From assembly GCA_030632085.1 (NCBI GenBank), contig DAOVJY010000002.1:13325-77324 (forward strand): DNA of 64,000 nucleotides. The letters are read 5' to 3'. The stretch comes from Candidatus Omnitrophota bacterium (GTDB taxonomy: Bacteria > Omnitrophota > Gorgyraeia > JAGLLT01). The notes beneath the pieces are model-generated. The model was not told the origin of the DNA. It saw nothing but the letters and a program-made list of their open reading frames with translations, and did no database searches. Shown one piece after another: positions 8,689 through 42,760 of this stretch (positions are counted from its first letter, which is position 1; the number at the start of each line of letters is the position of its first letter). A program made the translations under genes and the position numbers.

Positions 8689-8695
8689 GAAGCTG

Positions 8696-26169: not shown

Positions 26170-26196
26170 GAAAAATATTATAAGGAGGCGATTTAA

Positions 26197-26427: not shown

Positions 26428-26671
26428 TTTCCGGGACTAAATCTTCGGAATTTCACAGCGTGAAATTCCAGAGGGTCTGACAATTTTGCGACTCTCGGCG
26501 GAATTAATTCATCCTGCCATTATGGAACTCATTAAGGAAATCAATAGACTCCTCGCTTAAATAAAGGTAAATTTTCTTCGACAATTTACCTTTAAGCTTC
26601 GGAGTTAATTCTGGTCTATCATTTACAACAATGAAGTTGGTGTAAATGATGCCCTCATTAAGGAGAGGTAA
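26428..26671 (+). promoter_or_regulatory. long structured leader: degenerate module copy, then palindrome AAAGGTAAATT-N9-AATTTACCTTT, TTAATTC, hairpin and anti-SD/SD
   Basis: Perfect palindrome GGAATTTCAC-AGC-GTGAAATTCC at 26445-26467. 11-bp perfect inverted repeat at 26563-26593 (spacer ttcttcgac). ttaattc at 26605-11. Hairpin 26618-26650. gccctcattaaggag at 26651-65. ATG at 26672. Confidence 0.5.
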
Positions 26672-28015
26672 ATGAAAAAGACGGATGTTTTGGTTGTTGG
26701 AGGAGGCCCGGCTGGCATTATAAGCGCGGTTACAGCCCGCAGGTATTATCCGGAAAAGGAAGTCAAACTGATTAAATCGGTAGATAAAGGAGTTATTCCC
26801 TGCGCCATACCTTATATGTTTTACAGTTTGAAAAGTCTTAAAGAAAATGCCCAGGGCAACGCGCCTCTTGAAAAGAATAATGTTGAAGTAATAGTTGATG
26901 AAGTTACAAAAATATCACCTGATAAAAAGTGTGTTACAACTAAAAAGGGAGAAGAGTATCAGTATGACAAGTTAATAATGGCGATGGGTTCAGAGCCCGT
27001 TATTCCTCCTATCTCCGGAGCGGACAAAGAGAACGTCTTTGCTATCTATAAAGATATGGAATACTTAGAAAAGCTTGCTGAGAAAATAAAAGGGTTTGAG
27101 AATGTGCTTATTGTGGGGGGAGGATTTATCGGAATAGAGTTTGCTGATGAACTGTCCTGCCGTAAAGAGTTTAACGTATCTTTAGTAGAGATGCTGCCTT
27201 CTATTTTGAGCCAGTCTTTTGATGCTGAATTTTCTGCTCCAGTCAAGGAAAGGCTGGAAAAAAAGGGCGTGAAGCTGTTAACAGGTGTAGTTTTAGAGGA
27301 AATTTTGGGTGAAGAAAAAGTTGAGGGAGTTAGATTATCAGGTAATAAAAAAATAGACGTAGATTGCGTTATTTTTGGTATTGGGGCTTCGCCCAACACT
27401 AAAGTAGCTCAGGAAGCTGGAATAGTTATAAATAAAGGCAAGGGAGTATGGGTTGATGAGTATATGAGGACGTCAGAGCCGGATATTTTTGCCGTTGGCG
27501 ACTGTGCCGGCAAAAGAGATTTCTTTACCCGTAAGGGGACGGCGATTTTACTTGCCTCAACAGCTACGGCAGAAGCTAGAATCGCGGGCGCCAGCTTATA
27601 TAAGTTAAAGTTGATTAGGGAGAATAAAGGGACCATTGCCATTTATTCCACCCGTATTGACGGCCTGGTTTTAGGGTCGGCGGGGATGACTGAAGATAGC
27701 GCTAAGAAGGAAGGGTTTGAAGTTGTAACCGGCCTGGTAGAAGGTGTTGATAAACATCCCGGGACTATGCCCGAGGCAAGCAAACTAATGGTTAAGCTTA
27801 TCTTTTCAAAGCAGTCGGGAATTATTTTGGGAGGACAGGTTGCCGGAGGTATGAGCTGCGGTGAGCTGATAAATGTTATCGGGGTTGCTATACAGCAAAG
27901 AGTTTCCTTGAATGAATTTGAAACTTTGCAGATGGCTACTCATCCATGTCTGACCGCGGCTCCCACAAAATATCCTTTAATCATCGCGGCCCAGAATGCT
28001 TCAAGTAAGATGTAA
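26672..28015 (+). CDS. FAD-dependent pyridine nucleotide-disulfide oxidoreductase, NADH oxidase/CoA-disulfide reductase family
   Basis: 447 aa. VLVVGGGPAGI FAD motif, redox Cys in GVIPCAIPY (the Nox/CoADR SxxxC-xxPY region), a second Rossmann fold VLIVGGGFIGIEFA, and GDCAG. Confidence 0.85.
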   Translation: MKKTDVLVVGGGPAGIISAVTARRYYPEKEVKLIKSVDKGVIPCAIPYMFYSLKSLKENAQGNAPLEKNNVEVIVDEVTKISPDKKCVTTKKGEEYQYDKLIMAMGSEPVIPPISGADKENVFAIYKDMEYLEKLAEKIKGFENVLIVGGGFIGIEFADELSCRKEFNVSLVEMLPSILSQSFDAEFSAPVKERLEKKGVKLLTGVVLEEILGEEKVEGVRLSGNKKIDVDCVIFGIGASPNTKVAQEAGIVINKGKGVWVDEYMRTSEPDIFAVGDCAGKRDFFTRKGTAILLASTATAEARIAGASLYKLKLIRENKGTIAIYSTRIDGLVLGSAGMTEDSAKKEGFEVVTGLVEGVDKHPGTMPEASKLMVKLIFSKQSGIILGGQVAGGMSCGELINVIGVAIQQRVSLNEFETLQMATHPCLTAAPTKYPLIIAAQNASSKM

Positions 28016-28021
28016 GTATTT

Positions 28022-29917
28022 TTGCGGCAGAAAATAGAGAGAATTATAAGAAAGCGCCGGATGATTAAGGCCGGTGTGGATAGGAAAGCGTTTATGAATA
28101 TTGCAATTTCAAGCGGCAAAGGCGGCACAGGTAAGACTTTTGTCGCTACCAATTTGGCTATTGTTCTAAAGAAACAGGATAATAAAGTTGCCTATCTGGA
28201 TTGTGACGTTGAAGAGCCCAACGGACATCTTTTTTTAAAGCCGGCAGTAATTACGGCTAAAGATATTCACATTACAGCACCGGCTGGCGTTGATAAAGAG
28301 AAATGCGATAACTGTAAAAAATGTGTTTCTGCCTGCGCCTTTAACGCCATTGCTTCGATTAAAGATAAAATTCTTTTTTTCAGGCAGTTATGTCATGCCT
28401 GCGGCGCTTGCCGAATAGCCTGCCCCAAAGACGCTATTATTTATGAAGAAAGAAAAATAGGTGTTTTAAATTCAGGAACCGCGGATAAAATAAATATTAT
28501 CTATGGGGAACTTCAGACGGGTGAAGGGGCTATGACTCCCCGGTTAATCAGTGAAGTTAAAAAACATATAAATTCTCAGGCCATTAATTTAATTGATACG
28601 GCTCCCGGCACATCCTGCCCCGTGGTTGAAGCTATTTCCGGTATGGATTTAGTGGTTTTAGTTACTGATCCGACTCCATTTGGAGTTAATGATCTTAAGC
28701 TCTCAGTAGATATGTGCCGTATGGTAGGCCATGAGCCTGTAGTTTTGGTCAATAGGGCTGATTATAAAAATAATGATTTAATTGAATATTGCGAAAAAGC
28801 TCAGCTTGATATTATTGGTGAGATACCGGATGACAGGCAGGTGGCTGAACTATATTCTGAGGGCAAGATGGCTGTCAAGTATTTAAAGGCCTATGATGAC
28901 CTATTTTCAAAGATAGGTGAAGAGATTATCCAAAGGGCGTTAAATAAAAAAATACCAAAAGTTTTAAAGAATCCGCAAAAGAGTAGTTTTACAAATAAAC
29001 TTAGCGCCATACCGGCCCAGGCAGAACCCATCCGAAGCAGATATGATGAAATTATAATTATCAGCGGCAAAGGCGGCACCGGCAAAACAACCATAGCCGG
29101 TGGTTTTGCCAGCTTAAGCAAAAACGCGCTTATAACTGATTGTGACGTTGACGCGGCAGACCTGCATATTCTTTTATCTCCTGAGATAAAAGAGGGATAT
29201 CTATTTTCAGGCGGTAAAAAAGCGGCAATTGATCAGGAGAAGTGTACTGCTTGCGGCAGATGTTATGAAGAGTGTCGTTTTGGTGCCGTTAAAAAAGAAG
29301 GCAGCGGTTTTATAATTGATCCTTTAAAATGTGAAGGCTGTAATACCTGTTCTTTGGTTTGTCCTCAAGATGCCATAAAATTAGAAGAGGCGGTTAACGG
29401 AGAGCTTTATGTTTCCGAAAGCCGTTTTGGTCCTATGGTGCACGCTAAACTCTACGCGGCTGAAGAAAATTCAGGTAAATTAGTCAGTCTTATCAGGCAG
29501 ATGGCCAGAGACAAAGTTGCAAATGTTTCCACCGCTATTTCTCTCAATGACGGCGCGCCCGGAACCGGTTGTCCGGTAATTGCCTCAATTAGCGGCGCGG
29601 ATTACGCGGTTGTGGTTACAGAGCCGACGGTTTCCGGAATTCATGATGCCGGCAGAGTTTTTGAACTCTGTACTTTTTTTAATATCAAGGCAGGTTTAAT
29701 TGTAAATAAGAGTGATATAAATTTAAACAAGGCTGAAGAATTGAAAGCTATAGCTTTGAAATCCAATGTGGACTTTTTAGGTATGGTGCCTTATGATAAA
29801 AGTACAACAGAGGCTCAAATGTTAAATAAAAGCGTAATTGAATATGATCAGGAATGCCCGGCGTCAAAACGCATTAGAGATATTTGGCAGGATTTAATTG
29901 AGAAGGTGAAAGTATGA
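28022..29917 (+). CDS. tandem-duplicated MinD/Mrp-type P-loop ATPase with inserted 2x[4Fe-4S] ferredoxin domains (COG1149-like)
   Basis: Two modules, each with a deviant Walker A (AISSGKGGTGKT, IIISGKGGTGKTT) and two CxxCxxCxxxCP ferredoxin motifs. The true start is probably Met-25 (MNIAISS at 28094). Confidence 0.8.
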   Translation: MRQKIERIIRKRRMIKAGVDRKAFMNIAISSGKGGTGKTFVATNLAIVLKKQDNKVAYLDCDVEEPNGHLFLKPAVITAKDIHITAPAGVDKEKCDNCKKCVSACAFNAIASIKDKILFFRQLCHACGACRIACPKDAIIYEERKIGVLNSGTADKINIIYGELQTGEGAMTPRLISEVKKHINSQAINLIDTAPGTSCPVVEAISGMDLVVLVTDPTPFGVNDLKLSVDMCRMVGHEPVVLVNRADYKNNDLIEYCEKAQLDIIGEIPDDRQVAELYSEGKMAVKYLKAYDDLFSKIGEEIIQRALNKKIPKVLKNPQKSSFTNKLSAIPAQAEPIRSRYDEIIIISGKGGTGKTTIAGGFASLSKNALITDCDVDAADLHILLSPEIKEGYLFSGGKKAAIDQEKCTACGRCYEECRFGAVKKEGSGFIIDPLKCEGCNTCSLVCPQDAIKLEEAVNGELYVSESRFGPMVHAKLYAAEENSGKLVSLIRQMARDKVANVSTAISLNDGAPGTGCPVIASISGADYAVVVTEPTVSGIHDAGRVFELCTFFNIKAGLIVNKSDINLNKAEELKAIALKSNVDFLGMVPYDKSTTEAQMLNKSVIEYDQECPASKRIRDIWQDLIEKVKV

Positions 29918-30768
29918 AAACCAATACTCATTGCATTCCATGTTTTTTAAGGCAGGCCAATGAAACCCTGGATAGAATTAGTGTTCCTGAAAACAAAAAA
30001 AGAGAAATCCTAAAAGCTGTCTCAGATGCTATTTTTAAAGTCCCCTTCGAGAAAAGTCCGCCGCATGTTGCCAGGAAGGTATATGAGGTTATAAGTGAAT
30101 TAACAGGCATTGAAGACGCCTATAAAAAAGAAAAAAAGCATGCCAATGAACTGGTTTTAAAGCTTTATCCTGAATTAAAAAAGAGAATAAATAATTCCGG
30201 CAACCCTCTATTTGAAGCTGTTCGCTTAGCGGCCATTGGAAATATAATAGACTTAGGCGTTAAATCAACTTTCAACCTGGAAGAAGAGTTAAAAGAAGAT
30301 TCAAATACAGAGTTTAAAATTTTTGACTTTGAAATATTTAAAGATAAATTAAGCAAAGCTAAAAATATTCTCTATATAGCTGATAATACCGGTGAAATTG
30401 TTTTTGATAAACTTCTAATTGAAGAGATCAAAAAACCGGTAACTATTGCCGTGCGGGGAAAACCTATAATCAACGACGCTACTTTGGAAGATGCTCTTAA
30501 TTGCGGCTTGGATAAAGTGGCTCATGTTATTTCCAGTGGTTCTGACGGCCCGGCTGCCATATTGGACAGTTGTAGCCGGGAATTTTTGGATATATTTGAT
30601 AAAGCCGATTTTATTATAAGCAAAGGACAGGGTAATTTTGAAGAATTATGCGATAGAGATGAACCCATTTTTTTTATTTTTAAAGCTAAATGCCCGGCTG
30701 TGGCCGATGATTTGCGAGTTAATGTAGGTGATATGATATTAAGTTACAAAACCCACCGGAAAAAATGA
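29914..30768 (+). CDS. DUF89 (ARMT1-like damage-control phosphatase) family protein
   Basis: 284 aa. N-terminal CIPCFLRQ motif and the DUF89 core. Confidence 0.7.
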   Translation: MKTNTHCIPCFLRQANETLDRISVPENKKREILKAVSDAIFKVPFEKSPPHVARKVYEVISELTGIEDAYKKEKKHANELVLKLYPELKKRINNSGNPLFEAVRLAAIGNIIDLGVKSTFNLEEELKEDSNTEFKIFDFEIFKDKLSKAKNILYIADNTGEIVFDKLLIEEIKKPVTIAVRGKPIINDATLEDALNCGLDKVAHVISSGSDGPAAILDSCSREFLDIFDKADFIISKGQGNFEELCDRDEPIFFIFKAKCPAVADDLRVNVGDMILSYKTHRKK

Positions 30769-31481
30769 AAATCAGAATTATAGCTGATAACTATACGCAG
30801 GATAGTAGATTTAAAGAGTGCTGGGGATTCTCAGTGCTTATAAATGATGATATTTTATTTGATACGGCTGATAGTGCTGAAACTTTTCTATATAACGCGA
30901 AACAGTTAGATGTTGACCTTTCAGCCATAAAAAAAGTAGTTATTTCACATGACCACTGGGATCATATTGGTGGGTTGGAATCTTTATTTAAAAAAAATCC
31001 TAACGTTGAACTTTATGGTTTAAAGGATTTTTCCGAAGATTTCAAAAATTTAGCCGATAAATATAACATAAAATTAATTGAATGTGAAGATTTTAAGGAA
31101 ATTGATCCAGGCGCTTATGTAAGCGGTTCATTTAAAACTATATATAAACAGAAAAAGCTTGTTGAACAAGCACTAATATTAAAAACTGTAAAAGGCCTTA
31201 TAATCATATTAGGTTGTTCCCACCCGGGAGTAGTTGAGATGGTAGAGGTTATAAAGAAGCATTTCAATGAGAAAATATACTACGTTATGGGAGGATATCA
31301 TTTAGGCTCAAAAACAGAGAATGAAATTGAAAATATAGCGTTAAAGCTGCAAAAACTGGGTGTTAATAAAGTTGCTCCTACACATTGTACGGGCCAAAAG
31401 GCAATTGATATTTTTAGTAAAATGTATAGCGATAATTTTTTACGCCTTAAAACAGGCCTGGAAATTGAATTTGATTTTTAA
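30765..31481 (+). CDS. MBL-fold metallo-hydrolase (COG1237-like)
   Basis: 238 aa. VISHDHWDHIGG metal-binding motif and GCSHPG. Confidence 0.75.
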   Translation: MKIRIIADNYTQDSRFKECWGFSVLINDDILFDTADSAETFLYNAKQLDVDLSAIKKVVISHDHWDHIGGLESLFKKNPNVELYGLKDFSEDFKNLADKYNIKLIECEDFKEIDPGAYVSGSFKTIYKQKKLVEQALILKTVKGLIIILGCSHPGVVEMVEVIKKHFNEKIYYVMGGYHLGSKTENEIENIALKLQKLGVNKVAPTHCTGQKAIDIFSKMYSDNFLRLKTGLEIEFDF

Positions 31482-31496
31482 GTGAAGACACAACTT

Positions 31497-31625
31497 ATAG
31501 AGCGGGAGCGAACATAAGTTGTATGTCTGAACTTACCCCGCAACTTTCTATTTCGGAGAAGTTCTTCGTAGCAAAAAAGTGCGGGGTTTAATTCGCACAG
31601 AAACTTACGCTCACTTTGTTTCGTA
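31497..31625 (+). promoter_or_regulatory. hairpin-rich intergenic region (three stable stem-loops), a candidate structured RNA or regulatory region
   Basis: agacacaacttat...ataagttgtatgtct (about 14 bp stem). ccccgca-N34-tgcgggg followed by tttaattcg (same architecture as 25088-25129). aaacttacg...cgtaagttt. Confidence 0.3.
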
Positions 31626-31689
31626 AGTTTAGCGCTCATTTAAAAAATAGCTTGAAATAACCCCCTATTTCTGTAACAATGTACTCTAA

Positions 31690-32256
31690 ATGAAAAAAGA
31701 ACGTATAGTTTTAGATACAAGTGTGTTTGTGAATCCGGAGTCAAAATATAAGTTCGGGCGCAAACCGACGACCGCGTTTTTGAATTTTCTTAAGCTCGCG
31801 GAGGGATCAAAGAAGTGCATTTTTTATATGCCCCCCTCAATATATGCTGAGCTTATGAATTTTATTGATTCAAGTAAAATACCGGCGAAACTTTTGTTAT
31901 TTATTCATAAAAAAGCTCCTAAAAAATATGAGTTGAGCATGCCGGCTATGTTCTTTTATGAACTGGTTGATGATATGAGAAAAAGGGTTGATAAAGGGTT
32001 GCGTCTGGCTGAGAAGGGGATACGTCAGGCTAAAGACGCGAAAAAGATAGATGAGGTTATAAAAAGAATAAGGCATGATTATCGGACGGCTTTAAGAACA
32101 GATACTATAGATTCCAAGGAAGATGTAGACCTGATTCTTTTGGCTAAAGAACTAAAGGCAACTTTGATTAGTGTTGATAATGGAGCTATCTTGTGGGCCC
32201 ATAAACTAGGCATTAAATGCCGTGAGGCTAAAGAGCTTAAAAGCTTATTAAAATAA
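31690..32256 (+). CDS. PIN-like domain protein, HARP (homolog of Aquifex protein-only RNase P) / MJ0950 RNA-ligase-partner family candidate
   Basis: 188 aa. N-terminal RIVLDTSVFVNPES and C-terminal LILLAKELKATLISVDNGAILWAHKLG acidic clusters resemble PIN_5/HARP proteins of about 190 aa. Confidence 0.5.
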   Translation: MKKERIVLDTSVFVNPESKYKFGRKPTTAFLNFLKLAEGSKKCIFYMPPSIYAELMNFIDSSKIPAKLLLFIHKKAPKKYELSMPAMFFYELVDDMRKRVDKGLRLAEKGIRQAKDAKKIDEVIKRIRHDYRTALRTDTIDSKEDVDLILLAKELKATLISVDNGAILWAHKLGIKCREAKELKSLLK

Positions 32257-32273
32257 CGTATAAGGAGTAAGTC

Positions 32274-32678
32274 ATGAGTGAAGAGAAAAAGGACGAACAG
32301 CAAAACATTGAGAATCAACCGGAAGTAAAAGAAGAGGTAAAGACGGAACAGTCAAAAGAAGAGGTAGCTAAAGAACCGCAAAAGCCGGAAGTAAAAAAAG
32401 AGGAAGTAAAACAAGAAGAAAAAGCTCCTGAAGTTGAGGTAAAACCGGCCGCGGAAGAAAAAATTGAGGAAAAGCCTCAGGAAGCAAAAGAGGCAGCTCC
32501 GGCAGTTCCGGTAGCTCCAACTGAAAGCAAAGAGAAGAAGAAAAAGAAAATAAACAATATGAGTTTGGATGAGCTGGATAAAAAGATCAAAGAAACAGAA
32601 GATAAAATGGGTAATCTAAATTCGAAGTACGCTCAATCCCTAAAAGAACAGAGAGAAAAACTTTCTAATAAAAGTTAA
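32274..32678 (+). CDS. Lys/Glu-rich low-complexity (probably disordered) protein
   Basis: 134 aa made of EVKxEE/KPE repeats. Good SD (aaggag) upstream. No recognisable domain. Confidence 0.45.
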   Translation: MSEEKKDEQQNIENQPEVKEEVKTEQSKEEVAKEPQKPEVKKEEVKQEEKAPEVEVKPAAEEKIEEKPQEAKEAAPAVPVAPTESKEKKKKKINNMSLDELDKKIKETEDKMGNLNSKYAQSLKEQREKLSNKS

Positions 32679-32774
32679 AAGTAAAACTAAAATTTTATCG
32701 CGGCAGAAGAAGGGTTAGAATAAAAATATTTACAGATAGATTGATTTCCGTGAATTATACCTAAAAAAAAGCAA

Positions 32775-32805
32775 AAGGGAGATATGGTTTTTATCTCCCT
32801 TTTTC
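32775..32805 (+). terminator. rho-independent terminator
   Basis: aagggagata / tatctccctt stem followed by ttttc. Confidence 0.6.
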
Positions 32806-32952
32806 ATTGAAAATAATAGTTAAATTTTGTATACTAATGATAGGCAAAACAAGAAATATTAAAAAACGCGGTTGGTTATATTTTGGCTCTTGCTCTATAG
32901 GTTTCTCACGGGAGCAAATTCACAAACTTAATAAAGATAAGAAGAAATATTT

Positions 32953-33753: not shown

Positions 33754-33754
33754 T

Positions 33755-34075
33755 ATGGCGGAAAATATAAGTGCTGACCAATTTGAAAGCGAAGTTTTAA
33801 AATCTGATAAACCGGTTTTGGTCGATTTTTGGGCCGAATGGTGCGGTCCTTGTAAAATGATGGATCCGGTGATTGATGAATTATCCCGGGAATTATTAGG
33901 CAAAGTCAAAGTTGTAAAGGTAAACGTTGATGAAGCCCGGACGATCGCGTCAGATTATGGAATCATGAGTATTCCCACTATTGCTCTTTTTAATGATTCT
34001 AAAGAAATCGCCCGTTTATCAGGAGCTATGCCAAAAGATCCTATTATCCATTGGCTTGAGTCTAATCTTAAATAA
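33755..34075 (+). CDS. trxA: thioredoxin
   Basis: 106 aa with WAEWCGPCK. Confidence 0.93.
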   Translation: MAENISADQFESEVLKSDKPVLVDFWAEWCGPCKMMDPVIDELSRELLGKVKVVKVNVDEARTIASDYGIMSIPTIALFNDSKEIARLSGAMPKDPIIHWLESNLK

Positions 34076-34080
34076 AAAAT

Positions 34081-34879: not shown

Positions 34880-35074
34880 TTGTGGGTGGCAGTATCAGCT
34901 GATGTCTTAAAAGGTAAGAAATGTACTTGTTTTTTTGCGATTAAAGATGATGTTATAAATGCCGGGGCTACATATCTGGATGAAGAGGTTGTTGTAGATG
35001 GTAATTTAATTTCATCCCGCAAACCTGAAGATTTGCCCGCTTTCTTAAGGGCTATTATTGATAAATTATCTTAA
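34880..35074 (+). pseudogene. DJ-1/PfpI family C-terminal fragment
   Basis: 64 aa. VLKGKKCTCFFAIKDDVINAGATYLDEEVVVDGNLISSRKPEDLPAF matches only the last third of DJ-1/PfpI. The N-terminal about 100 aa, including the nucleophile Cys, is missing, and the fragment starts with TTG. Confidence 0.6.
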
Positions 35075-35117
35075 TTTACGATGTGATTGATTAAGCTGCA
35101 AACGAAAGGAGACTGCA

Positions 35118-35600
35118 GTGGAGCTCAATAAAGCGATGGTAAGATTGCTCTCGAAACATAAAATTGTAATGGTTTCGAGCGCCTCAAAAGACGGCAAACC
35201 CAACGCTTCACTTAAAGGGATTGTAGAAGTCCTACCGGAGAAAGGGATAATATATTTTCTTGATTTGTATTCCCAAAAAACCAGGAATAATCTTTTGGAA
35301 AATCCGCAGGTTTCTATATCTATCGCGGATATTGATGGATTTGAAGGATATCAGTTTAAGGGTGTAGTTGAGCTGATGAATGACGGAGAGATGTTTAAAA
35401 AATATATTAAGAGATGGGAAAGGCAGAGAACGGTTTTATTAATCGAAAGAATGATAAAAAATGTTCAAAAAGGTTCCAGCCACGGACGCCATGAATTGTT
35501 TCTGCCTGAACCGAAATATCTGGTAAAAGTGCGCGTAACTGAAATTTATGATTTGTTACCCCACAGTGGTTCTCAGAGTAATAATAAAAAGAAAACTTGA
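35118..35600 (+). CDS. pyridoxamine 5'-phosphate oxidase-like FMN-binding split-barrel protein
   Basis: 160 aa. GTG start. KIVMVSSASKDGKPNASLKGIVEV is typical of the PNPOx-like family. Confidence 0.65.
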   Translation: MELNKAMVRLLSKHKIVMVSSASKDGKPNASLKGIVEVLPEKGIIYFLDLYSQKTRNNLLENPQVSISIADIDGFEGYQFKGVVELMNDGEMFKKYIKRWERQRTVLLIERMIKNVQKGSSHGRHELFLPEPKYLVKVRVTEIYDLLPHSGSQSNNKKKT

Positions 35601-35623
35601 AATATAAACGGAGATTTTTTGAG

Positions 35624-38600
35624 ATGGCAAGTAAAATGAAAACCATGGATGGTAACACAGCGGCCGCCTATATAGGCCATGCCACAAATGAAGTAATCGC
35701 AATATATCCCATAACTCCTTCATCCGGAGTGGGGGAAATGGCTGACGCGAAATCCGCCAAGGGAGAAGTTAATATTTGGGGCCAGGTACCAACTGTATCC
35801 GAGCTTCAGTCGGAAGCGGGTGCTGCGGGAACTGTACACGGCGCCTTGACAGCCGGCAGCATGACTACAACATTTACCGCTTCTCAAGGCCTGCTTTTAA
35901 TGATTCCTAACATGCATAAAATAGCAGGTGAACTTACACCTGCTGTTTTTTATGTGACCGCTAGAACTGTGGCCTCACATGCTTTATCCATTTTTTGTGA
36001 CCACTCTGATATTATGGCAGTGCGCTCGACCGGTTTTGCCATTCTTTCCGGTTCCAGTGTTCAAGAGGTTATGGATTTAGCCTTAGTGGCTCAAGCGGCT
36101 ACATTGGAATCCAGAGTTCCGTTTGTTTTTACCTATGACGGCTTCAGGACTTCACATGAAATTCAAAAGATAGAAGAAATTGATTTTGCGAGCATGAAAT
36201 CTCTTATAAAAAATGAATACTTAAGAAGCCATAGGCTCAGGGGACTTAATCCTGAAAGGCCGGTTTTAAGGGGTACTTCTCAGAATCCGGATGTTTTTTT
36301 TCAGGAAAGGGAAACCGTAAACGCGTATTATGATAAATGCCCTCAGATAGTTGAGGATGTAATGAAGAGATTTAAAGAAGTTGTCGGTAGGGAATATAAA
36401 CTTTTTGAGTATGTCGGAGCCCCGGACGCCGAGCGCGTCATTTTGATTATGGGTTCTGCCGCCGAGACGGTTCACGAGGCAGTTGATTATCTGGTTGCTC
36501 AAGGTGAAAAAGTAGGCGTTCTAAAGGTAAAATTGTTCAGGCCTTTCTCGATAGAGCATTTTATTAAGGCTTTACCTGCCAGCGTTAAGAAAATTGCTGT
36601 TTTGGATAGGACTAAAGAGCCTGGAGCTTTAGGCGAACCACTTTACCTTGACGCGCGCTCAGCTATTGGTGAAGCTATGGAAAAAGGTATAGCTACGCTT
36701 AAGGAGTATCCGGTAATTGTTGGCGGCAGGTATGGCTTGGGTTCTAAAGAGTTTACGCCGGCTATGGTAAGAGGTGTTTTTGATAACCTTTCTTTAGATA
36801 AAAACAAAATAAAGAATCATTTTACTGTTGGTATCAATGACGATTTAACTCATACAAGCTTGGAATATAATGCTGAATTCTCAACTGAAGACCCTGATAC
36901 TTTCAGGGGTATTTTTTACGGTTTGGGTTCAGATGGTACTGTGGGAGCTAATAAGAATTCAATTAAAATAATCGGTGAGTTGACTGATAATTATGTCCAA
37001 GGTTATTTTGTTTATGATTCCAAGAAAGCCGGTTCAAAAACAGTTTCACATTTAAGATTCGGCAAACATCTCATCAGAGGAACTTATCTGATAAGTAAAG
37101 CTAACTTTGTAGCTTGTCACAATTTTTCGTTTTTAGAGAAATATGATGTTTTAGGAGCAGCTGAAGATAAGGCTACTTTTCTTTTAGCCAGTCCTTTTTC
37201 AAAAGATGAGGTCTGGGATAAAATGCCTATAGAGGTGCAGAAACAGATAATTGATAAGAAATTAAAATTTTATGTAATTCAAGCTTATAAACTAGCCGGG
37301 GAAATCGGTCTTGGAGTGAGAATAAATGTAATAATGCAGACCGCTTTTTTTGCTATTAGTGAAGTAATTGATAAAAATAAAGCTGTTGAGGCTATTAAGG
37401 ACGCGATTATAAAGTCCTATGGGAAAAAGGGTGAAAGCGTGGTTAATATGAATAACCAGGCTGTAGATAAAGCCCTTGAAGCTATTGAAGAAGTTATTGT
37501 TCCCAAGGAAGCAACCAGTAAAATAAAAATACCGGCTGCGGTACCCGATGAGGCTCCTGAATTTGTAAAGAATGTAACAGCAAAAATAATCGTGGATAAA
37601 GGTGATGAGCTTCCGGTTTCCGCCTTTCCGAAGGATGGGACTTTTCCGACAGCGACATCGCAGTATGAAAAACGAAACATTGCTATAAACATTCCTGAAT
37701 GGGATCCTGAAATATGTATCCAGTGTGGCCAGTGTTCATTAGTTTGTCCGCACGCGGCTATCAGGATGAAGATGTATGATAAAAAGCTTTTAGATAAAGC
37801 TCCTGTTACTTTTAAGCATATGCAGGCAAAAGGAAAAGATTTAGAAGGCAAGGCATTAACTATACAAGTGGCTCCCGAGGATTGTACCGGTTGCGGTGCT
37901 TGTGTTAATATCTGTCCAATTACGCGAAAAGATAAAGACAATAAGCCTACAGGCAGAAAAGCGCTTAATATGGTACCTCAAATTGACAGGCGTCTAAAAG
38001 AAAAAGATAATTTCACATTTTTCTTATCGCTTCCGGATATGAAAGCTGAAGATTTACCAGTTGGTATAGGGACTTTAAAAGGTTCTCAGTTAATGAGGCC
38101 TTTATTTGAGTTTTCCGGTGCTTGTGCCGGTTGCGGTGAAACACCCTATGTAAAACTACTTTCTCAACTTTTTGGAGACAGGGCTTTAATTGCCAACGCG
38201 ACCGGCTGTACTTCAATTTACGGTGGTAATTTACCGACAACACCCTATTGCGTTAGAAATGATGGCAGGGGCCCCGCTTGGTCAAACTCTTTATTCGAGG
38301 ATAACGCTGAGTTTGGTTTTGGTATGCGCCTGGCTGTTGAACAGTTATCGGAAAAAGCCAAACTTCTTTTAAAAGATGTAGCTGAAAAAATATCTGATAA
38401 AAAATCGCTTATTGATGAAATTATAACAACCAGCCAGATAACTCATGATGAGATAGATAAACAAAGATTTAGAATTGAAGAATTAAGAGAAGCCCTAAAA
38501 AAATTCAGTAGTGAGGCGAAGGTAGCTGAGTTACTTGAAATACTGGATTACCTGGTGAAAAAATCAGTTTGGATTTTAGGTGGTGACGGCTGGGCTTATG

Positions 38601-39283
38601 ATATCGGCTATGGCGGTTTGGATCATGTGCTGGCTTGCGGAAAAAATGTAAATGTTCTGGTGCTGGATACGGAAGTATATTCAAATACAGGCGGGCAGAT
38701 GTCTAAAGCTACTCCTATGGGAGCTGTTGCTAAGTTCGCGGCTGCCGGCAAGCCGATATTTAAAAAAGACCTGGGTTTACTGGCTATGGCTTACGGTAAT
38801 ATTTATGTGGCCAGGATAGCTATGGGTGCTAATCCGGCTCAAGCGATAAAGGCTTTTGTTGAGGCTGAAAGTTACGACGGCCCTTCGATTATTATAGCTT
38901 ACAGTCACTGTATAGCCCACGGAATTAATATGACTAAAGGTATGGAGCAGCAGAAAAAAGCTGTCGCTTGCGGTTGCTGGCCGTTAATAAGATTTAACCC
39001 TGATCTTTTAAAAGAAGGTAAGAATCCTCTACAGCTTGATTCGAGGGAACCTAGTATACCTCTGGAGGATTACATTTATAATGAAAACAGATTTAAAACT
39101 CTTAAGAAATCCAACCCTCAAAGGGCTAAAGAATTATTAGACTTGGCTCAGCATGAGGTTAATTGCAGATTCAAGAGATATCAATATATGGCTAAGATGG
39201 ATTGTTCTCAAGAAACAAGTATAAAGTCATCAGTCATACCCTTTCGGGCACAGGCAAGTCACAAGCAAGAAGCAAATAGCTAA
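35624..39283 (+). CDS. nifJ: pyruvate:ferredoxin (flavodoxin) oxidoreductase, single-polypeptide NifJ/Por type
   Basis: About 1219 aa from the ATG at 35624 (the ORF-track start at 35597 is an upstream TTG). Ferredoxin-domain Cys motifs (CIQCGQCSLVCP, CTGCGACVNICP), TPP domain GGDGWAYDIGYGGLDH. The last about 20 codons are derived from the intergenic repeat module. Confidence 0.93.
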   Translation: MASKMKTMDGNTAAAYIGHATNEVIAIYPITPSSGVGEMADAKSAKGEVNIWGQVPTVSELQSEAGAAGTVHGALTAGSMTTTFTASQGLLLMIPNMHKIAGELTPAVFYVTARTVASHALSIFCDHSDIMAVRSTGFAILSGSSVQEVMDLALVAQAATLESRVPFVFTYDGFRTSHEIQKIEEIDFASMKSLIKNEYLRSHRLRGLNPERPVLRGTSQNPDVFFQERETVNAYYDKCPQIVEDVMKRFKEVVGREYKLFEYVGAPDAERVILIMGSAAETVHEAVDYLVAQGEKVGVLKVKLFRPFSIEHFIKALPASVKKIAVLDRTKEPGALGEPLYLDARSAIGEAMEKGIATLKEYPVIVGGRYGLGSKEFTPAMVRGVFDNLSLDKNKIKNHFTVGINDDLTHTSLEYNAEFSTEDPDTFRGIFYGLGSDGTVGANKNSIKIIGELTDNYVQGYFVYDSKKAGSKTVSHLRFGKHLIRGTYLISKANFVACHNFSFLEKYDVLGAAEDKATFLLASPFSKDEVWDKMPIEVQKQIIDKKLKFYVIQAYKLAGEIGLGVRINVIMQTAFFAISEVIDKNKAVEAIKDAIIKSYGKKGESVVNMNNQAVDKALEAIEEVIVPKEATSKIKIPAAVPDEAPEFVKNVTAKIIVDKGDELPVSAFPKDGTFPTATSQYEKRNIAINIPEWDPEICIQCGQCSLVCPHAAIRMKMYDKKLLDKAPVTFKHMQAKGKDLEGKALTIQVAPEDCTGCGACVNICPITRKDKDNKPTGRKALNMVPQIDRRLKEKDNFTFFLSLPDMKAEDLPVGIGTLKGSQLMRPLFEFSGACAGCGETPYVKLLSQLFGDRALIANATGCTSIYGGNLPTTPYCVRNDGRGPAWSNSLFEDNAEFGFGMRLAVEQLSEKAKLLLKDVAEKISDKKSLIDEIITTSQITHDEIDKQRFRIEELREALKKFSSEAKVAELLEILDYLVKKSVWILGGDGWAYDIGYGGLDHVLACGKNVNVLVLDTEVYSNTGGQMSKATPMGAVAKFAAAGKPIFKKDLGLLAMAYGNIYVARIAMGANPAQAIKAFVEAESYDGPSIIIAYSHCIAHGINMTKGMEQQKKAVACGCWPLIRFNPDLLKEGKNPLQLDSREPSIPLEDYIYNENRFKTLKKSNPQRAKELLDLAQHEVNCRFKRYQYMAKMDCSQETSIKSSVIPFRAQASHKQEANS

Positions 39284-39500
39284 TAGCTAAGAGCAAAGGG
39301 CAAACACAGGATTAAGGATTAAGAATTAAGGATTAAGTAAAAAACAAGATACAAAAAACAAGTACAAAGTCACAAGACACAAGTTGTAAGTCACATGACA
39401 TAAGTCACAAGTAAAAAACAAAAACAAAAGAACAAAAAGATAAGACACAAGAAATAAGTTATAAGTCATACCCTTTCGGGCACAGGCAAGACACAGGTCA
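39232..39500 (+). repeat. modular A/C-rich intergenic repeat locus 2 (modules D, A heptads, B decamers, C A/C tracts, D)
   Basis: agtcataccctttcgggcacaggcaag at 39232-58 (inside the PFOR 3' end) and again at 39464-90. Heptads gattaag/aattaag at 39310-37. aagtcacaag / aagacacaag decamers. caaaaacaaaagaacaaaaaga tracts. Almost T-free on the + strand. Confidence 0.8.
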
Positions 39501-39526
39501 CAAGAAACAAAAAAGTAAAGATGTCC

Positions 39527-39649
39527 CTTGCTTAAACAAAGGTAAATTCTCTTTGACAATTTACCTTTAAGCTTCGGGATTAATTCGGGCTTATCATTTA
39601 CGACAGCGAAGCTGACGTAAATGATGCCCTCATTAAGAGGAGGGTTTGT
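39527..39649 (+). promoter_or_regulatory. conserved cis-module copy 2: palindrome AAAGGTAAATT-N9-AATTTACCTTT, TTAATTC, hairpin, anti-SD/SD
   Basis: Inverted repeat at 39538-39568 with spacer ctctttgac (contains TTGACA). ttaattc at 39580-86. Hairpin 39593-39625 with compensatory changes relative to copy 1. gccctcattaagaggagg. ATG at 39650. Confidence 0.55.
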
Positions 39650-39838
39650 ATGAAAGCTGTAGTAATTAAAGATTTATGTACCGGTTGCGGCCTTTGTGTC
39701 AGCACCTGTCCTGATGTTTTTGAAATGGTTGGTGATGTAGCGGAAGTTAAAGGAGATGTTGTACCTGAAGCCGCCGAGGATACCGCGAAAGAGGCTACTC
39801 AGAATTGTCCTGTAGAGGCCATAACCATCGAAGAATAG
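39650..39838 (+). CDS. fdx: 4Fe-4S ferredoxin (single-cluster type)
   Basis: 62 aa. CTGCGLCVSTCP plus the distal Cys in NCPVEA. Confidence 0.85.
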   Translation: MKAVVIKDLCTGCGLCVSTCPDVFEMVGDVAEVKGDVVPEAAEDTAKEATQNCPVEAITIEE

Positions 39839-39845
39839 TTTATAT

Positions 39846-40174
39846 ATGTTAGAAGAGCTTCAATCAACTTTAAAGGATTACATTCAAGCCGGTCAGGTAC
39901 TTTCTTACCTGACCGCTTTTGTTAGCGGTTTTTTCCTGAGTTTTACCTCGTGCATATATTCTCTAATTCCGGTAACTTTAGGCTATATAGGGGCGACGGA
40001 TACGAATTGTCATCGAGCTTTTATGTTATCTCTAACTTATGTTTTAGGGATAAGCGCTATGGGGTTAGGGGCGTGCCGTACATGGTTATAATTGATAAAA
40101 CCGGGAAAATTAAATGGACGGGCCATATATTGGATAATACTGCCAGAACTATACTAAGAGAACTTTTTAGTTAG
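39846..40174 (+). pseudogene. remnant of a CcdA/DsbD-type thiol-disulfide transporter fused out of frame to a TlpA/ResA-like thioredoxin C-terminus
   Basis: Frame A (39846-40091) gives the CcdA TM1-2 signature FLSFTSCIYSLIPVTLGYIGA and then a stop. A different frame (to 40174) gives RGVPYMVIIDKTGKIKWTGHIL, the C-terminal GVP-T-F-ID-GKI motif of TlpA-like thioredoxins. TM3-6 and the CxxC region are missing. Confidence 0.6.
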
Positions 40175-40183
40175 GGGAATGAT

Positions 40184-41311
40184 ATGATAAAACCAAATCC
40201 TTTTACTCCGCAGTCGGGCTGGGAACCGAGATTTTTTGGAGGCCGGGAGGAAGAGCTGAATTTTTTTGAAAAGGTACTCTCTCAAAGCATAAGAGACCAG
40301 GCCAATCATGTGGTCATTTTAGGAGAGTGGGGTACGGGAAAGACCTCACTATCTAAACAACTGAAGAAGATAGCTCAATCTCAGGGGTACCCGACGGCTT
40401 TTTGTCCTTTAAGTAACATAAGTTCCAAGTCGGCCTTAAAAGACACTATCAACCTTATAGCTCAGGAGATGCTTCTAGGCCTTCCTAAGGACTCAACAGC
40501 CATAGGTATGGAAAACATTTTAAATGAGTTAGGTAAATTACAGCCACAGGTTAAGTTTACTAAGTTTTTGGTAAATTTATGGCAAGTCATAGAAGCTAAG
40601 ATGGCGGTGGTGTTTATTGATGATGTGCAGAATTTAGATATTAATTCCGGGGTTATTGATACCCTGCGTTCTGTTTTAAGCAGGGATGAAGTAATAAAAA
40701 GTACTAATTATTTGTTTGTTTTATTGTCAACGCCCAGGGGCTGGCAGGATTTTATAGATAAACATAATCCGGTAGGCCGTTTTTTTAGAAAAAGAATATA
40801 TTTGGAGAACCTCAATCAGACGGAAACAAGTGAAATAATTGATAAAACATTAAATGAAACCGAAATTAGTTTCGGTGAAAACATTAAAAAGGATGTTTAT
40901 GATAATACTAAAGGACATCCTTATGAATTACAGCTTTTATGCAGTAATCTATATGATGATCAGCTCCAAGATACTATTACTAATGAGATTTTTAACAAGG
41001 CTTTAAAAAATACTTTACGGGAATTAGGTAAAGATTATTTTGAAGCTCTTTACAGAAGAGCGAGTGATAGAGAGAAAGAGGTCTTGTCTATTTTAGTGGA
41101 AAAAAATAAACCTCTTAGTATATCAGACATTCGCTCAATAATGATAATCGAGAAAAGAAAGGCCGGCTTTCCTATCGCGAATATTAAAAATTTTCTCTAT
41201 CGTCTCTACGAAAAAGAGATTATAAAAAGAAGAGATACGGGTGAGTTTGAAATAATAGATCCTATGTTTACTAAATACCTGGAGATTTTTGAATTGAAAA
41301 AAGGAGTATAA
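40184..41311 (+). CDS. AAA+ ATPase of the archaeal-ATPase (PF01637-like) family, orphan
   Basis: 375 aa. NPFTPQ...FFGGREEELNFF N-terminus, Walker A ILGEWGTGKTSL, Walker B VVFIDDVQNL, and a C-terminal winged-helix-like region. Confidence 0.65.
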   Translation: MIKPNPFTPQSGWEPRFFGGREEELNFFEKVLSQSIRDQANHVVILGEWGTGKTSLSKQLKKIAQSQGYPTAFCPLSNISSKSALKDTINLIAQEMLLGLPKDSTAIGMENILNELGKLQPQVKFTKFLVNLWQVIEAKMAVVFIDDVQNLDINSGVIDTLRSVLSRDEVIKSTNYLFVLLSTPRGWQDFIDKHNPVGRFFRKRIYLENLNQTETSEIIDKTLNETEISFGENIKKDVYDNTKGHPYELQLLCSNLYDDQLQDTITNEIFNKALKNTLRELGKDYFEALYRRASDREKEVLSILVEKNKPLSISDIRSIMIIEKRKAGFPIANIKNFLYRLYEKEIIKRRDTGEFEIIDPMFTKYLEIFELKKGV

Positions 41312-41315
41312 AAGC

Positions 41316-41771
41316 ATGACTGACCTTGAAGATAAAATTAAAAAAGATACAATAGAAGCCTTGAAAAATAAGGACGGAGTAAAAGTGACAACTTTAAGAA
41401 TGCTCCAAGCGGCTATCCAGCGCAAAGCTATTGAAAACAGGAAAGAAGAATTAAAAGAAGAAGATGTTTTACAGGTTTTAAAAAAGCAAGTGAAGCAAAT
41501 TAAAGATTCTATTGAAGCTTTTACTAACGGTAACAGAAATGATTTGGTTGAAAAAGAAAAAGTGTCCTTAAGCATCCTTAAGGATTATTTGCCTCCTCAG
41601 GCAAGCCTTGAAGAAATAAAAGAGGTAGTTTTAAAAATTAAAGATGAAATAAATCCTCAGTTGCCCGCTGATTTCGGCAAGGTTATGAAAGAAGCTATGG
41701 CTGTTTTAAAAGGAAAAGCAGACGGCAAAGATGTAAGTGTGATAATAAAACAACTTCTTTTAAAAAAATAA
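41316..41771 (+). CDS. yqeY: GatB/YqeY domain protein
   Basis: 151 aa. Helical GatB_Yqey family (LKNKDGVKVTTLRMLQAAIQ...ISILKDYLPPQAS). Confidence 0.85.
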   Translation: MTDLEDKIKKDTIEALKNKDGVKVTTLRMLQAAIQRKAIENRKEELKEEDVLQVLKKQVKQIKDSIEAFTNGNRNDLVEKEKVSLSILKDYLPPQASLEEIKEVVLKIKDEINPQLPADFGKVMKEAMAVLKGKADGKDVSVIIKQLLLKK

Positions 41772-41775
41772 ATAG

Positions 41776-42546
41776 ATGAAAACGCTCAAATTTATAGGCA
41801 CAGCCGGTGCCAGATTCGCAATGCTGAGACAGTTGAGGGCTTCAGGTGGTTTGTGGCTTAAGTGGGAGGAGACTAATTTGTTAATAGATCCGGGGCCCGG
41901 CTCTCTCGTGGGATGTTTAAAGTCGCGTCCTAAATTAAATCCTCTGGATTTAGATGGTATTATTTTAACCCATCGCCATCTGGATCATTCAGGAGATATT
42001 AATGTGATGATAGAAGCTATGACCGAAGGGGGTCATAAAAAAAAGGGTATAGTTGTTGCTCCTTATGATGCTCTGGAGATTGATCCGGTAATCTTAAGGT
42101 ATAACCGTAATTATGTTGACAAGATAGAAATTTTAAAGGAAAATGAGACCTATAAAATTAAAGAGGTTTCATTTCAGGCCGCGATAGAGCATGTTCATGG
42201 CTGTGAGACTTACGGCCTTAATTTTAAGGCTGGTAAAAAAGTCCTTCTTTCTATCATAACTGATACTCAGTATTTTGAAGGTATTGAAAAATATTACCCG
42301 GGGGATATCCTGGTGGTAAATATTTTGTTATTTAATGAAAAAAATCATGTAAAGCATCTTAGCTTAGCTGATGCCAGATTAATTTTAAAAAATAGTAATT
42401 GCCGGGTTTTTATCATGACTCATTTTGGTATGAAGATGCTTAAGAATAAACCCCATGAAATCGCCCGTGAGCTTCAAGATGAATTTAAAGATAAACAAAT
42501 TATCGCCGCCTATGACGGCATGACTTTTGATTTAGAAAAGCGTTAA
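41776..42546 (+). CDS. MBL-fold metallo-hydrolase
   Basis: 256 aa. THRHLDHSGD metal-binding motif. Confidence 0.7.
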   Translation: MKTLKFIGTAGARFAMLRQLRASGGLWLKWEETNLLIDPGPGSLVGCLKSRPKLNPLDLDGIILTHRHLDHSGDINVMIEAMTEGGHKKKGIVVAPYDALEIDPVILRYNRNYVDKIEILKENETYKIKEVSFQAAIEHVHGCETYGLNFKAGKKVLLSIITDTQYFEGIEKYYPGDILVVNILLFNEKNHVKHLSLADARLILKNSNCRVFIMTHFGMKMLKNKPHEIARELQDEFKDKQIIAAYDGMTFDLEKR

Positions 42547-42667
42547 AAATAAGTCACAAAAGATAAGTCATAAGTCACATGACACAAGTCACAAGACAAA
42601 TAGCTAAGAGCAAAAAACAAAAGAACGAAAAACAAAAAACTAAAAAAAACAAGAAATTGAACTACTC
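42547..42667 (+). repeat. modular A/C-rich intergenic repeat locus 3
   Basis: aagtcacaaaagataagtcataagtcacatgacacaagtcacaagac, then aaatagctaagagc, then caaaaaacaaaagaacgaaaaacaaaaaactaaaaaaaacaag. Same modules and order as locus 2. Confidence 0.8.
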
Positions 42668-42760
42668 CTTGCTTAAACAAAGGTAAATTATCAAAGAGAA
42701 TTTACCTTTAAGCTTCGGAGTTAATTCTCCGCCTAAGGCGGATCATTAAGGAGTATAACA
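42668..42760 (+). promoter_or_regulatory. conserved cis-module copy 3 (palindrome with inverted spacer, TTAATTC, GC hairpin, ATCATTAAGGAG)
   Basis: aaaggtaaatt (42679-89), atcaaagag, aatttaccttt (42699-709). The spacer is the reverse complement of copy 2's. ttaattc at 42721-27. Hairpin tccgcctaaggcgga. tcattaaggag. ATG at 42761. Confidence 0.55.

Follow-up and report, generated by a model that had tools for sequence, protein, structure and literature searches.

Three copies of a perfect palindrome, each a short distance upstream of a start codon, stand in a 64,000-nt stretch of a Candidatus Omnitrophota genome (contig DAOVJY010000002.1, positions 13,325 to 77,324; hereafter the window). They raise the question of whether such a repeat works in the DNA, as an operator, promoter or invertible switch, or in the mRNA of the genes that it precedes. 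An earlier reading of the letters alone, made without database searches (below, the sequence-only reading), had likened the palindrome to an HrcA/CIRCE operator or to a small invertible or recombinogenic element. Comparison with relatives of the element points elsewhere, to a modular and mobile mRNA-leader hairpin that sets downstream expression, with the palindrome as the upper stem of a cis-acting first hairpin (HP1); we put the probability of this reading at about 0.6. We know of no work on the control of gene expression in the Omnitrophota, which are uncultured. The window sequence belongs to ENA ERZ23498525 scaffold_7 (286 kb), and the proteins that it encodes find their best matches in Candidatus Omnitrophota.

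A covarying hairpin around the palindrome

Scanning the window for AAAGGTAAATT-N9-AATTTACCTTT with up to three mismatches allowed gave three exact matches (0 mismatches), at 26563-26593, 39538-39568 and 42679-42709, all on the + strand and referred to here as sites 1 to 3; 0.01 matches are expected by chance, and none of 100 shuffles reaches three. The flanks, spacers and start-codon distances given by the sequence-only reading were borne out at all three. The shared flanks are (c/t)GCTTAAA(C/T)A on the 5' side and AAGCTTCGG(A/G)(G/A)TTAATTC on the 3' side, the spacers are TTCTTCGAC, CTCTTTGAC and ATCAAAGAG, respectively, and the palindrome starts 109 nt before the ATG at site 1 (ATG 26672), 112 nt at site 2 (ATG 39650) and 82 nt at site 3 (ATG 42761). 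As had also been claimed, each palindrome is accompanied by a leader module, TTAATTC-hairpin-(C)TCATTAAGGAG, which lies directly 3' of it and occurs elsewhere without a palindrome; TTAATTC and CTCATTAAGGAG are both conserved blocks.

The reported 11-bp dyad is exact as a core, but its symmetry extends further. Past a 4-nt bulge on the 5' side (AAAC or AAAT in the window hairpins) and a small internal loop, the pairing resumes as GCTTA/TAAGC (P2) and then as ACTCC/GGAGT or GTCCC/GGGAT (P1), and the whole feature is a hairpin of about 58 nt (P1-P2-bulge-P3) whose upper stem, P3, is the dyad. This is the minimum free energy (MFE) structure that RNAfold gives for the window regions (z = -5.6, -5.4 and -5.5 for sites 1 to 3), and in it the "9-nt spacer" resolves into a one-base mismatch, two pairs (UC/GA) and a triloop. 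HP1 of site 1 occupies 26548-26605 (+), with P1 formed by 26548-26552 (ACTCC) and 26601-26605 (GGAGT), P2 by 26555-26560 and 26592-26597, and P3 by 26565-26573 and 26583-26591; the bulge is ATAA (26561-26564), the palindrome (26563-26593) lies inside, and the apex (26574-26582) is a U.C mismatch, UC/GA and the triloop UUC. At site 2 (39523-39580, +), P1 joins 39523-39527 (GTCCC) to 39576-39580 (GGGAU), P2 joins 39530-39535 to 39567-39572 and P3 joins 39540-39548 to 39558-39566, around a bulge at 39536-39539 and an apex at 39549-39557 (CTCTTTGAC). Site 3 (42664-42721, +) pairs 42664-42668 with 42717-42721 in P1, 42671-42676 with 42708-42713 in P2 and 42681-42689 with 42699-42707 in P3; its bulge is 42677-42680, and its apical loop, which is flipped (42690-42698, ATCAAAGAG), forms an A.G mismatch, UC/GA and the triloop AAA. 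The P1 of site 2 differs from the ACTCC/GGAGT of sites 1 and 3 by compensatory changes, within one window.

Relatives of the element were sought in two ways. An arms-only scan of one genome per species returned 96 loci, mostly chance AT-rich hairpins; seven of them match the window flanks base for base, and these come from four Omnitrophota metagenome-assembled genomes, MAGs (L013, L031 and L090; L020 and L069; L051; L079). A flanks-only scan of metagenome contigs, with the arms left free, added 42 loci in which the arm sequences vary and the pairing is retained (AGCTAAAATT/AATTTTAGCT, AACCAAAATT/AATTTTGGTT, AAGGGAAATT/AATTTCCCTT, CTGAGGAAAT/ATTTCCTCAG, AAGCAAAATT/AATTTTGCTT). Altogether about 60 further hairpin copies from Omnitrophota genomes and metagenomes keep the pairing through compensatory substitutions in the arms. 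There are thus many more copies than the three in the window, and the one before the aspartate aminotransferase gene aspC (site 3) is conserved in orthologous spacers. Strict copies on long contigs number roughly one per 100 kb; the window has three in 64 kb.

The pairing of HP1 is supported by covariation. In an alignment of 47 distinct copies (A1), P3 is 95.5% paired, with both sides changing in 7 of 11 pairs and three to five pair types at the basal pairs, and in P1, which is 95% paired, two pairs covary (UA/CG 20:17 and CG/UA 31:14) across about 50-55 nt. The covariation score of A1 was reached by none of 500 shuffles, and sliding the partners by one to three columns lowers the pairing from 88% to 23-57%. 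P2 is constant in A1 only because the flank-search pattern fixed it; the copies found by a covariance model include GCTTA/TAAGC, GTCTA/TAGAC, GCGTA/TACGC and AGCTA/TAGCT. From a second, partly independent set that includes divergent model-found copies (A3), RNAalifold independently yields the same P1-P2-P3 fold, with compensatory change in 13 of 21 pairs. P1 covaries within single genomes as well (CTCC/GGAG and TCCC/GGGA in the window; TCCC/GGGA and CCCC/GGGG in Ga0082335 contigs). Fold z-scores lie between -5.4 and -7.3 in five of six tested regions, the sixth (L079) being at -3.8.

The fold also has a strand. Our covariance model (R1) scores 87-92 bits on the + strand vs. 18-33 bits on the - strand (88.3 vs. 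22.1 at site 1, 86.7 vs. 33.2 at site 3, and 91.7 on the + strand at site 2), and G.U pairs and A.C mismatches on the + strand stand at 35:20. The hairpin most likely forms in RNA, and would act there rather than in single-stranded DNA.

Some additions to the fold were considered and set aside. Extending P1 by pairing an upstream TAATWT with TTAATTC gave 57% paired cells and no covariation, and stop codons of the preceding genes account better for the TAA-rich upstream signal. The P1/P2 internal loop, by inspection, lacks the tandem G.A pairs of a K-turn. Near-identical arms characterize each hairpin subfamily within a genome, and several subfamilies coexist in single contigs (L114, L103, L020, L111); identity within genomes is therefore not absolute, which may weaken the case for arms that evolve in concert with a trans-acting factor. 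First hairpins occasionally stand in tandem (L118:2143-2294, L104:1481-1634, L142:640-745; two type-A units 93 nt apart, and two type-C units), recalling mosaic repeat arrays.

A two-hairpin leader that comes and goes before unrelated genes

HP1 is the first part of a longer leader. Directly 3' of P1, with no linker, come TTAATTC, a very variable second hairpin (HP2), (C)TCATTAA, the Shine-Dalgarno sequence (SD) and the start codon. The TTAAT pairs with the ATTAA to close HP2; the collected loci contain 41 distinct modules of the form TTAAT-TC-hairpin-TC-ATTAA-SD, and the closing helix occurs in compensatory versions (TAAAT/ATTTA, TAAGT/ACTTA, TCAAT/ATTGA, TTAAAT/ATTTAA). We had considered an RNase E site in a single-stranded UUAAUU linker, an idea that fails because UUAAU is paired with AUUAA in a helix that covaries. 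At site 1 this part covers 26605-26674 (+), with TTAAT (26605-26609) paired to ATTAA (26657-26661) around an inner hairpin ATCATTTAC...GTAAATGAT, followed by the SD GGAG (26662-26665) and the ATG (26672) of a FAD-dependent oxidoreductase gene. At site 2 (39580-39652, +), TTAAT 39580-39584 pairs with ATTAA 39632-39636, the SD is GAGGAGG (39637-39643), and the ATG at 39650 opens a 62-aa ferredoxin gene immediately 3' of the PFOR gene. The HP2 of site 3 is short (42721-42763 with its start region, +): TTAAT 42721-42725 and ATTAA 42745-42749 enclose TCCGCC-TAA-GGCGGA, and SD GGAG (42750-42753) and ATG (42761) belong to aspC.

The element is always followed by HP2, SD and start codon on the same strand, and only the sense orientation was seen. 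In 41 of 43 copies the closest ORF on the upstream side shares the strand of the element. P1 begins 0-9 nt past the upstream stop codon at seven loci, and over all copies this distance ranges from 0 to more than 600 nt, with the register to the downstream start fixed. Pfam assignments place the element inside well-known operons, 8 nt past the stop codon between S4 and RpoA, likewise 8 nt past the stop between ATP synthase subunits a and c (AtpB→AtpE), in a 126-nt gap between L21 and L27, and between MraZ and the next gene. The downstream genes are housekeeping genes unrelated to one another, among them those for RpoA, L21, L27, AtpE, GlnA, CspA, MetE, TrpD, Apt, FolE, PilT, a pilin-like protein, PhoH, PhoU, LexA, CdhD, ComM, Band-7, ferredoxin and AspC. 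A strong sigma-70 promoter lies within 150 nt upstream in 4 of 49 copies, at variable distance, and the promoter scan found none upstream of the three window sites.

The element also occurs in a phage. Contig L099, identical to L161 (IMG/VR UViG 3300025669_004029), carries portal, scaffolding and major head genes and has a type-A hairpin with its leader at 3007-3115, 9 nt past the head-scaffolding gene and immediately before the gene for the major head protein, which may connect the Omnitrophota, as hosts, with this phage. Contig L123 is related to it. A search of viral contigs with the strict leader pattern gave no match.

Such placement, between cistrons and before diverse genes, speaks against a promoter, a terminator or a specific regulon, and for an intercistronic or 5' untranslated region (5'-UTR) element that serves the downstream cistron. 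An intrinsic terminator in particular does not fit: the would-be tail UUAAUUC is paired within HP2, the scan calls none at the three sites, the distance to the upstream stop varies while that to the downstream start is fixed, and the element stands before cistrons whose product is typically needed in larger amounts (AtpE, major head protein). An integron attC site was likewise rejected, the neighbors being core housekeeping genes in conserved operons. The sequence-only reading had left the choice between a regulon and a mobile regulatory cassette. The great diversity of the downstream genes removes the first, and the second is favored by the constant position before a ribosome-binding site and by presence/absence differences that appear even at about 98% identity.

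Those differences show at orthologous loci. Before aspC, the hairpin recurs with its flipped loop, ATCAAAGAG, in a 97% ortholog (L141); in an 88% ortholog (L144-L147) the arms differ but are compensated and the loop is still ATCAAAGAG, in a spacer that is otherwise unalignable. An 89% ortholog (L142, L143) carries an unrelated hairpin, in tandem, in the same slot, and the 77% orthologs a plain 59-nt spacer. At site 2, the comparison is with L160, from a strain that shares 98.2% of its PFOR DNA and 97.4% of its ferredoxin DNA with the window; its spacer measures 104 nt and contains a small GC hairpin. Here a window-specific segment (39205-39574, +), made up of an A/C-rich low-complexity tract and most of the site 2 hairpin, stands in for about 50 nt of the L160 spacer with about 370 nt of its own. 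The 88% ortholog of site 2 also has a small GC hairpin, and the contig of the 89% ortholog ends within a palindrome-type element. In the 94% orthologs of site 1 (L152-L154), the oxidoreductase gene follows a methyltransferase gene after 9 nt, and model R1 found no match in 46 kb of their syntenic sequence. The module is gained, lost and exchanged on very short time scales, and is constrained where it is retained. It tends to interrupt assemblies, as a multi-copy repeat would: a Logan contig (L140) starts right after the site 3 palindrome, and an NCBI MAG contig (L158) ends in P2 after PFOR. The inserted segment at site 2 also encodes the last 26 or so codons of the window PFOR (39205-39283 of ORF 35597-39283); the L160 PFOR stops 22 nt past the breakpoint, and the C-terminal tail in the window is longer and different.

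Across the window and its relatives, the place of HP1 may be taken by a small GC-rich stem-loop, by a hairpin with a loop insertion of about 65 nt, or by an unrelated structure, and there is a "type B" first hairpin with a different P2 and different junctions and the same apical AAAATT-yTCnnnGAy-AATTTT. The palindrome is one interchangeable version of HP1 in a two-hairpin leader.

A proposed role and its rivals

We propose that HP1 (P1, P2, the 4-nt bulge, P3, a short apical helix and a triloop) would form in the mRNA, in the sense strand of the downstream gene, abutting HP2 and its UUAAU/AUUAA closing helix without a linker, with the SD and start codon directly next. Lying in 5' UTRs, and very often between the cistrons of one operon, the leader would most likely set the output of the downstream cistron. 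A stable local structure upstream of the ribosome-binding site may insulate and present the SD; alternatively, the hairpins may protect or define mRNA ends after intercistronic processing, as a stabilizer or processing site. The second route is that of the intercistronic RNase III hairpins of phage T7 and of the Correia elements of Neisseria (for the latter, PMC2649163). Some of the genes that the element precedes have typically abundant products, which fits such a role, although the list of genes is mixed overall. Recombination or transposition would spread and exchange the module within and between genomes, leaving its presence at any given gene evolutionarily labile.

Several points weigh against this proposal. 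Transcription through HP1, the positions of 5' ends and processing are all things that we infer, and the excess of G.U over A.C is modest; a hairpin in single-stranded DNA would covary alike. P2, the AAACA/AAGCA bulge, the UUC and the apical AAAUU-yUCnnnGAy-AAUUU are conserved beyond pure structural need, although the conservation of P2 and the flanks was imposed in part by the flank-search pattern. The element is dispensable, as the site 1 orthologs at 94% and the nearly identical strain at site 2 do without it, which fits a selfish repeat too. Low-abundance regulators (LexA, PhoU) are among the targets, and "highly expressed genes" holds as a tendency only.

That the bulge, internal loop and apical stem-loop are strongly conserved in sequence hints at a specific partner, be it a protein, a nuclease or a tertiary contact. 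A bolder version of the leader hypothesis, which we consider rather unlikely, would make HP1 and HP2 a phylum-wide plug-in expression module, common to Omnitrophota and their phages, moving between genes as a cassette and read by a dedicated trans-acting partner. Candidates for such a partner are an endoribonuclease, a protein associated with the ribosome, or a catalytic fold of the RNA itself; it would process polycistronic mRNAs and boost chosen cistrons, and exchange of modules would rewire expression levels.

A serious rival, although we think it improbable on balance, is a purely selfish miniature repeat (MITE/REP-like), that is, small mobile palindromic DNA in AT-rich spacers that is tolerated when transcribed and has no function for the host. 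The presence/absence polymorphism between strains about 98% identical and among the 94%, 89% and 88% orthologs is what it predicts, as are near-identical arms per subfamily with several subfamilies side by side, the tandem copies in L118 and L104, and the breaks in assemblies. In the window clade AGTTAAT is found on both sides of the hairpin (AAGTTAATAG[ACTCC...GGAGT]TAATTC at 26539-26611, and in L013, L031, L090, L108 and L113; most other copies lack it), and this may be a target-site duplication or merely a sign of chained modules; the unit as a whole forms an imperfect palindrome, and our check for target-site duplications turned up no clean empty/filled pair with identical flanks. A selfish repeat accounts poorly for the strict sense orientation of essentially all copies and for their fixed register with HP2 and SD. 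It would not lead one to expect that the aspC copy is kept across the protein divergence of the 88% orthologs, with stems compensated, loop unchanged and spacer unalignable, or that a phage has the element before its capsid gene. Copy number is low, and no transposase is linked to the element, transposases not having been searched genome-wide.

A regulated RNA switch, or the binding site of a dedicated trans-acting factor, seems to us distinctly unlikely. Here the 5' strand of P1 (ACUCCU) would toggle between the decoy CGGAGU and the true SD as a means of global post-transcriptional control, and the MFE folds of site 3 and L079 do pair this strand with the real SD and not with GGAGU. Sequence conservation between types A and B in the bulge, internal loop and apical stem-loop would suit such a factor as well, as would the loop at aspC that stays the same while the stems drift. 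Against it, the commoner UCCC/GGGA and CCCC/GGGG copies match the SD poorly, so that the alternative pairing is not general; unrelated small GC hairpins can replace HP1 at the same gene, and no candidate factor was identified.

That the element is a promoter cassette, whose conserved blocks and spacer TTGACA would start transcription at HP2, we regard as very unlikely. Sense orientation and a fixed distance to the start codons of well-expressed genes would be expected of a promoter too, and the TTGACA or TCGACA that the sequence-only reading had remarked on does run across the loop-arm junction in some copies, with GATTAAT as a -10-like sequence. However, 19-21 nt separate this TTGACA from any -10-like hexamer (the sigma-70 spacer is 16-18 nt), the -35-like hexamer is free to vary at its first two positions, the hexamer is destroyed in flipped copies, and the scan calls no sigma-70 site at the elements; the evident promoters of the genome are canonical, TTGACA-17-TATAAT. 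A promoter also leaves unexplained the covariation of P1 and P3 and the copies that begin 0-9 nt past stop codons in operons that are normally co-transcribed. Promoters of the sigma-54, sigma-B and sigma-H styles were compared by eye with their consensus sequences, and no conserved motif emerged. A cruciform-dependent promoter, in which extrusion joins TTGCTT to ATTAAT, is contradicted by the TCGCTT of half of the copies and, once more, leaves the covariation of P1 unexplained. The loop and 3' arm of site 2, CUCUUUGACAAUUU, resemble the boxA of E. coli rrn operons, and a boxA/nut-like signal was dropped in turn; the copies agree only in UC...GA, with varying bases between.

The DNA operator of a dimeric transcription factor, as first suggested, is scarcely credible any longer. 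A perfect 11-bp dyad with a fixed 9-nt spacer and identical arms in three copies does look like one, and CIRCE, the HrcA operator, likewise lies upstream of genes as an inverted repeat whose spacer is 9 nt long. In other copies, though, the arms differ and it is the pairing, not the half-site, that is conserved; the 4-nt bulge is asymmetric and conserved, and the symmetry reaches helices about 50-55 nt apart, which exceeds any operator. CIRCE (TTAGCACTC-N9-GAGTGCTAA) is conserved in sequence and limited to groE/dnaK-type operons, neither of which applies to the Omnitrophota hairpin: no match to it with up to three mismatches occurs in the window, the targets are unrelated genes and not chaperones, and copies stand inside operons right after stop codons.

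The spacer of site 3 is indeed the reverse complement of that of site 2 save for one base; with CTCTTTGAT, a loop present in other copies, the reverse complementarity is complete. The flip changes C.C + UC/GA + UUU into A.G + UC/GA + AAA and leaves the apical helix as it was. A second flipped loop, independent of the first, occurs at L114:9215 (ATCAAAGAT). Despite these two cases, an invertible or recombinogenic DNA switch, with a spacer that turns around to change expression, is the least tenable of the explanations, since flipped loops occur at only two loci of about 60, the one at aspC is inherited in three lineages (window, 97% and 88% orthologs) as a fixed variant, an independent assembly of the same sample has the identical orientation at site 2, and the 9 nt are a hairpin loop, too short for recombinase-mediated inversion. 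Small inversions of loops bounded by hairpin stems, with equal folding energy either way, are a known mutational outcome in transcribed plastid spacers (PMC6824564), and the flip at site 3 is probably an old event of this sort that left the structure intact.

Known hairpin repeats and other leaders in the window

No Rfam 15 family reached its gathering score in the 64-kb window, no relevant match at E <= 10 was obtained for 25000-26750, and full-text literature searches for Omnitrophota RNA motifs returned no description of such a hairpin. The mRNA-leader hairpin looks like an undescribed transcribed intergenic hairpin repeat or structured leader, and what distinguishes it is that it is coupled in a fixed way to a ribosome-binding site and that a phage uses it. 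The REP/BIME and ERIC elements of Enterobacteria and the BOX elements of Streptococcus pneumoniae are transcribed modular hairpin repeats between cistrons, with lineage-specific subfamilies, and some of them stabilize adjacent mRNA. REPs usually follow genes as 3' stabilizers, occur in both orientations, are linked to RAYT transposases (IS200/IS605-type) and have a conserved 5' cleavage motif of the GTAG type. The Omnitrophota unit, in contrast, keeps to the downstream start codon and has the ribosome-binding site as one of its parts, and we found no RAYT, no genome-wide search having been made. The RNase III hairpins of phage T7 early mRNA and of the E. coli rplL-rpoB spacer are irregular structures of more than 20 bp with internal loops that lie between cistrons just 5' of the next ribosome-binding site and decouple the stability and translation of neighboring cistrons. 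Those sites, however, are not a repeated, sequence-conserved family across genes and genomes.

The Correia elements of Neisseria (CREE/NEMIS) are also short, palindromic, gene-adjacent repeats that are co-transcribed, form mRNA hairpins that alter the expression of neighbors, and vary between strains (PMC2649163); they are also able to generate promoters and to bind IHF, and RNase III can cleave or protect them (PMC2649163). They differ in their size of about 100-150 bp, terminal inverted repeats, TA target duplication, hundreds of copies and occurrence in both orientations, whereas the Omnitrophota hairpin measures about 58 nt, does not exceed tens of copies, and is strictly sense and in fixed register with a second hairpin and SD. 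The plastid loop inversions resemble the flip at site 3 in that loops on perfect stems turn around at equal energy in transcribed spacers, where the hairpins are thought to stabilize mRNA (PMC6824564), but they are a mutational phenomenon and not a functional class, and the Omnitrophota flip is stably inherited, not recurrent.

The analysis defines a leader architecture, supported by covariation, at many unrelated genes, including cistrons within the alpha, atp and rplU-rpmA operons and a phage capsid gene. If the proposed role is right, this would be a natural portable cassette of ribosome-binding site and insulator, and cistron output would be retuned by module exchange. In practice the element may serve as a marker for Omnitrophota sequence and host-phage links in metagenomes, explain breaks in assemblies, and give gene callers a precise start-codon signal.

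Within the window, the leader module TTAAT-TC-hairpin-TC-ATTAA-SD is commoner than the palindrome and precedes about 7 of roughly 64 genes. It occurs without the palindrome at 25123, 49232, 31588 (degenerate) and 26504 (a relic). The first of these (25089-25194, +) has a minimal first hairpin, TCCCGCA...TGCGGGA (25089-25121), then TTAATTC at 25123, HP2, CTCATTAAAGGAGG and an ATG at 25192; it serves a NifX-like gene and scores 15.6 bits with the covariance model, and its ortholog in L020 has a full palindrome-type hairpin. At 49232-49278 (+) there is the leader module only (TTAATTC-TCCCCGCCGCGGCGGGGA-TCATTAAGGAG, ATG 49276), overlapping the end of the upstream ORF. The degenerate copy spans 31588-31650 and is adjoined by a sigma-70-like promoter at 31652-31680. 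Immediately 5' of site 1, relic modules (26430-26545, +) consist of the 3' half of a type B hairpin with a loop insertion, ending in ...GACAATTTTGCGACTCTCGGCGGAATTAATTC, and a degenerate HP2 ending in CTCATTAAGGAA. The loop insertion, a conserved structured segment of about 65 nt (ccccgtgggattcggagaattcccgggactaagtcctcggaatttaacagtgtgaaattccagaggg), is found in some first hairpins (window 26430-26510, L020:3330-3540, L020:4036-4174 and L090); the window copy, of which only the 3' half is present, adjoins the end of a small RGG-rich zinc-ribbon ORF (26197-26427), an ORF that follows a leader in L020 too.

Every called gene from 1 to 64000 is on the + strand, GC content is about 38% and GC skew is positive throughout, so gene orientation is inseparable from replication orientation in the window. 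Long intergenic tracts poor in T and G occur at 8689-8800, 39284-39520, 42547-42660 and 46759-47024, as well as in L013 and L031 (reverse-complemented), and are built from a few words (AAGTCACAAG, ATAAGTCA, AACAAAAGAAC, TAGCTAAGAGC, GGATTAAGGATTAAGAATTAAGGATTAAG). They are missing from the orthologous spacers of L141 and L160, which points to recent expansions. Their C-rich, G-poor RNA would suit Rho loading, and the repeated AUUAAGGA words in them copy the pre-SD sequence of the leader.

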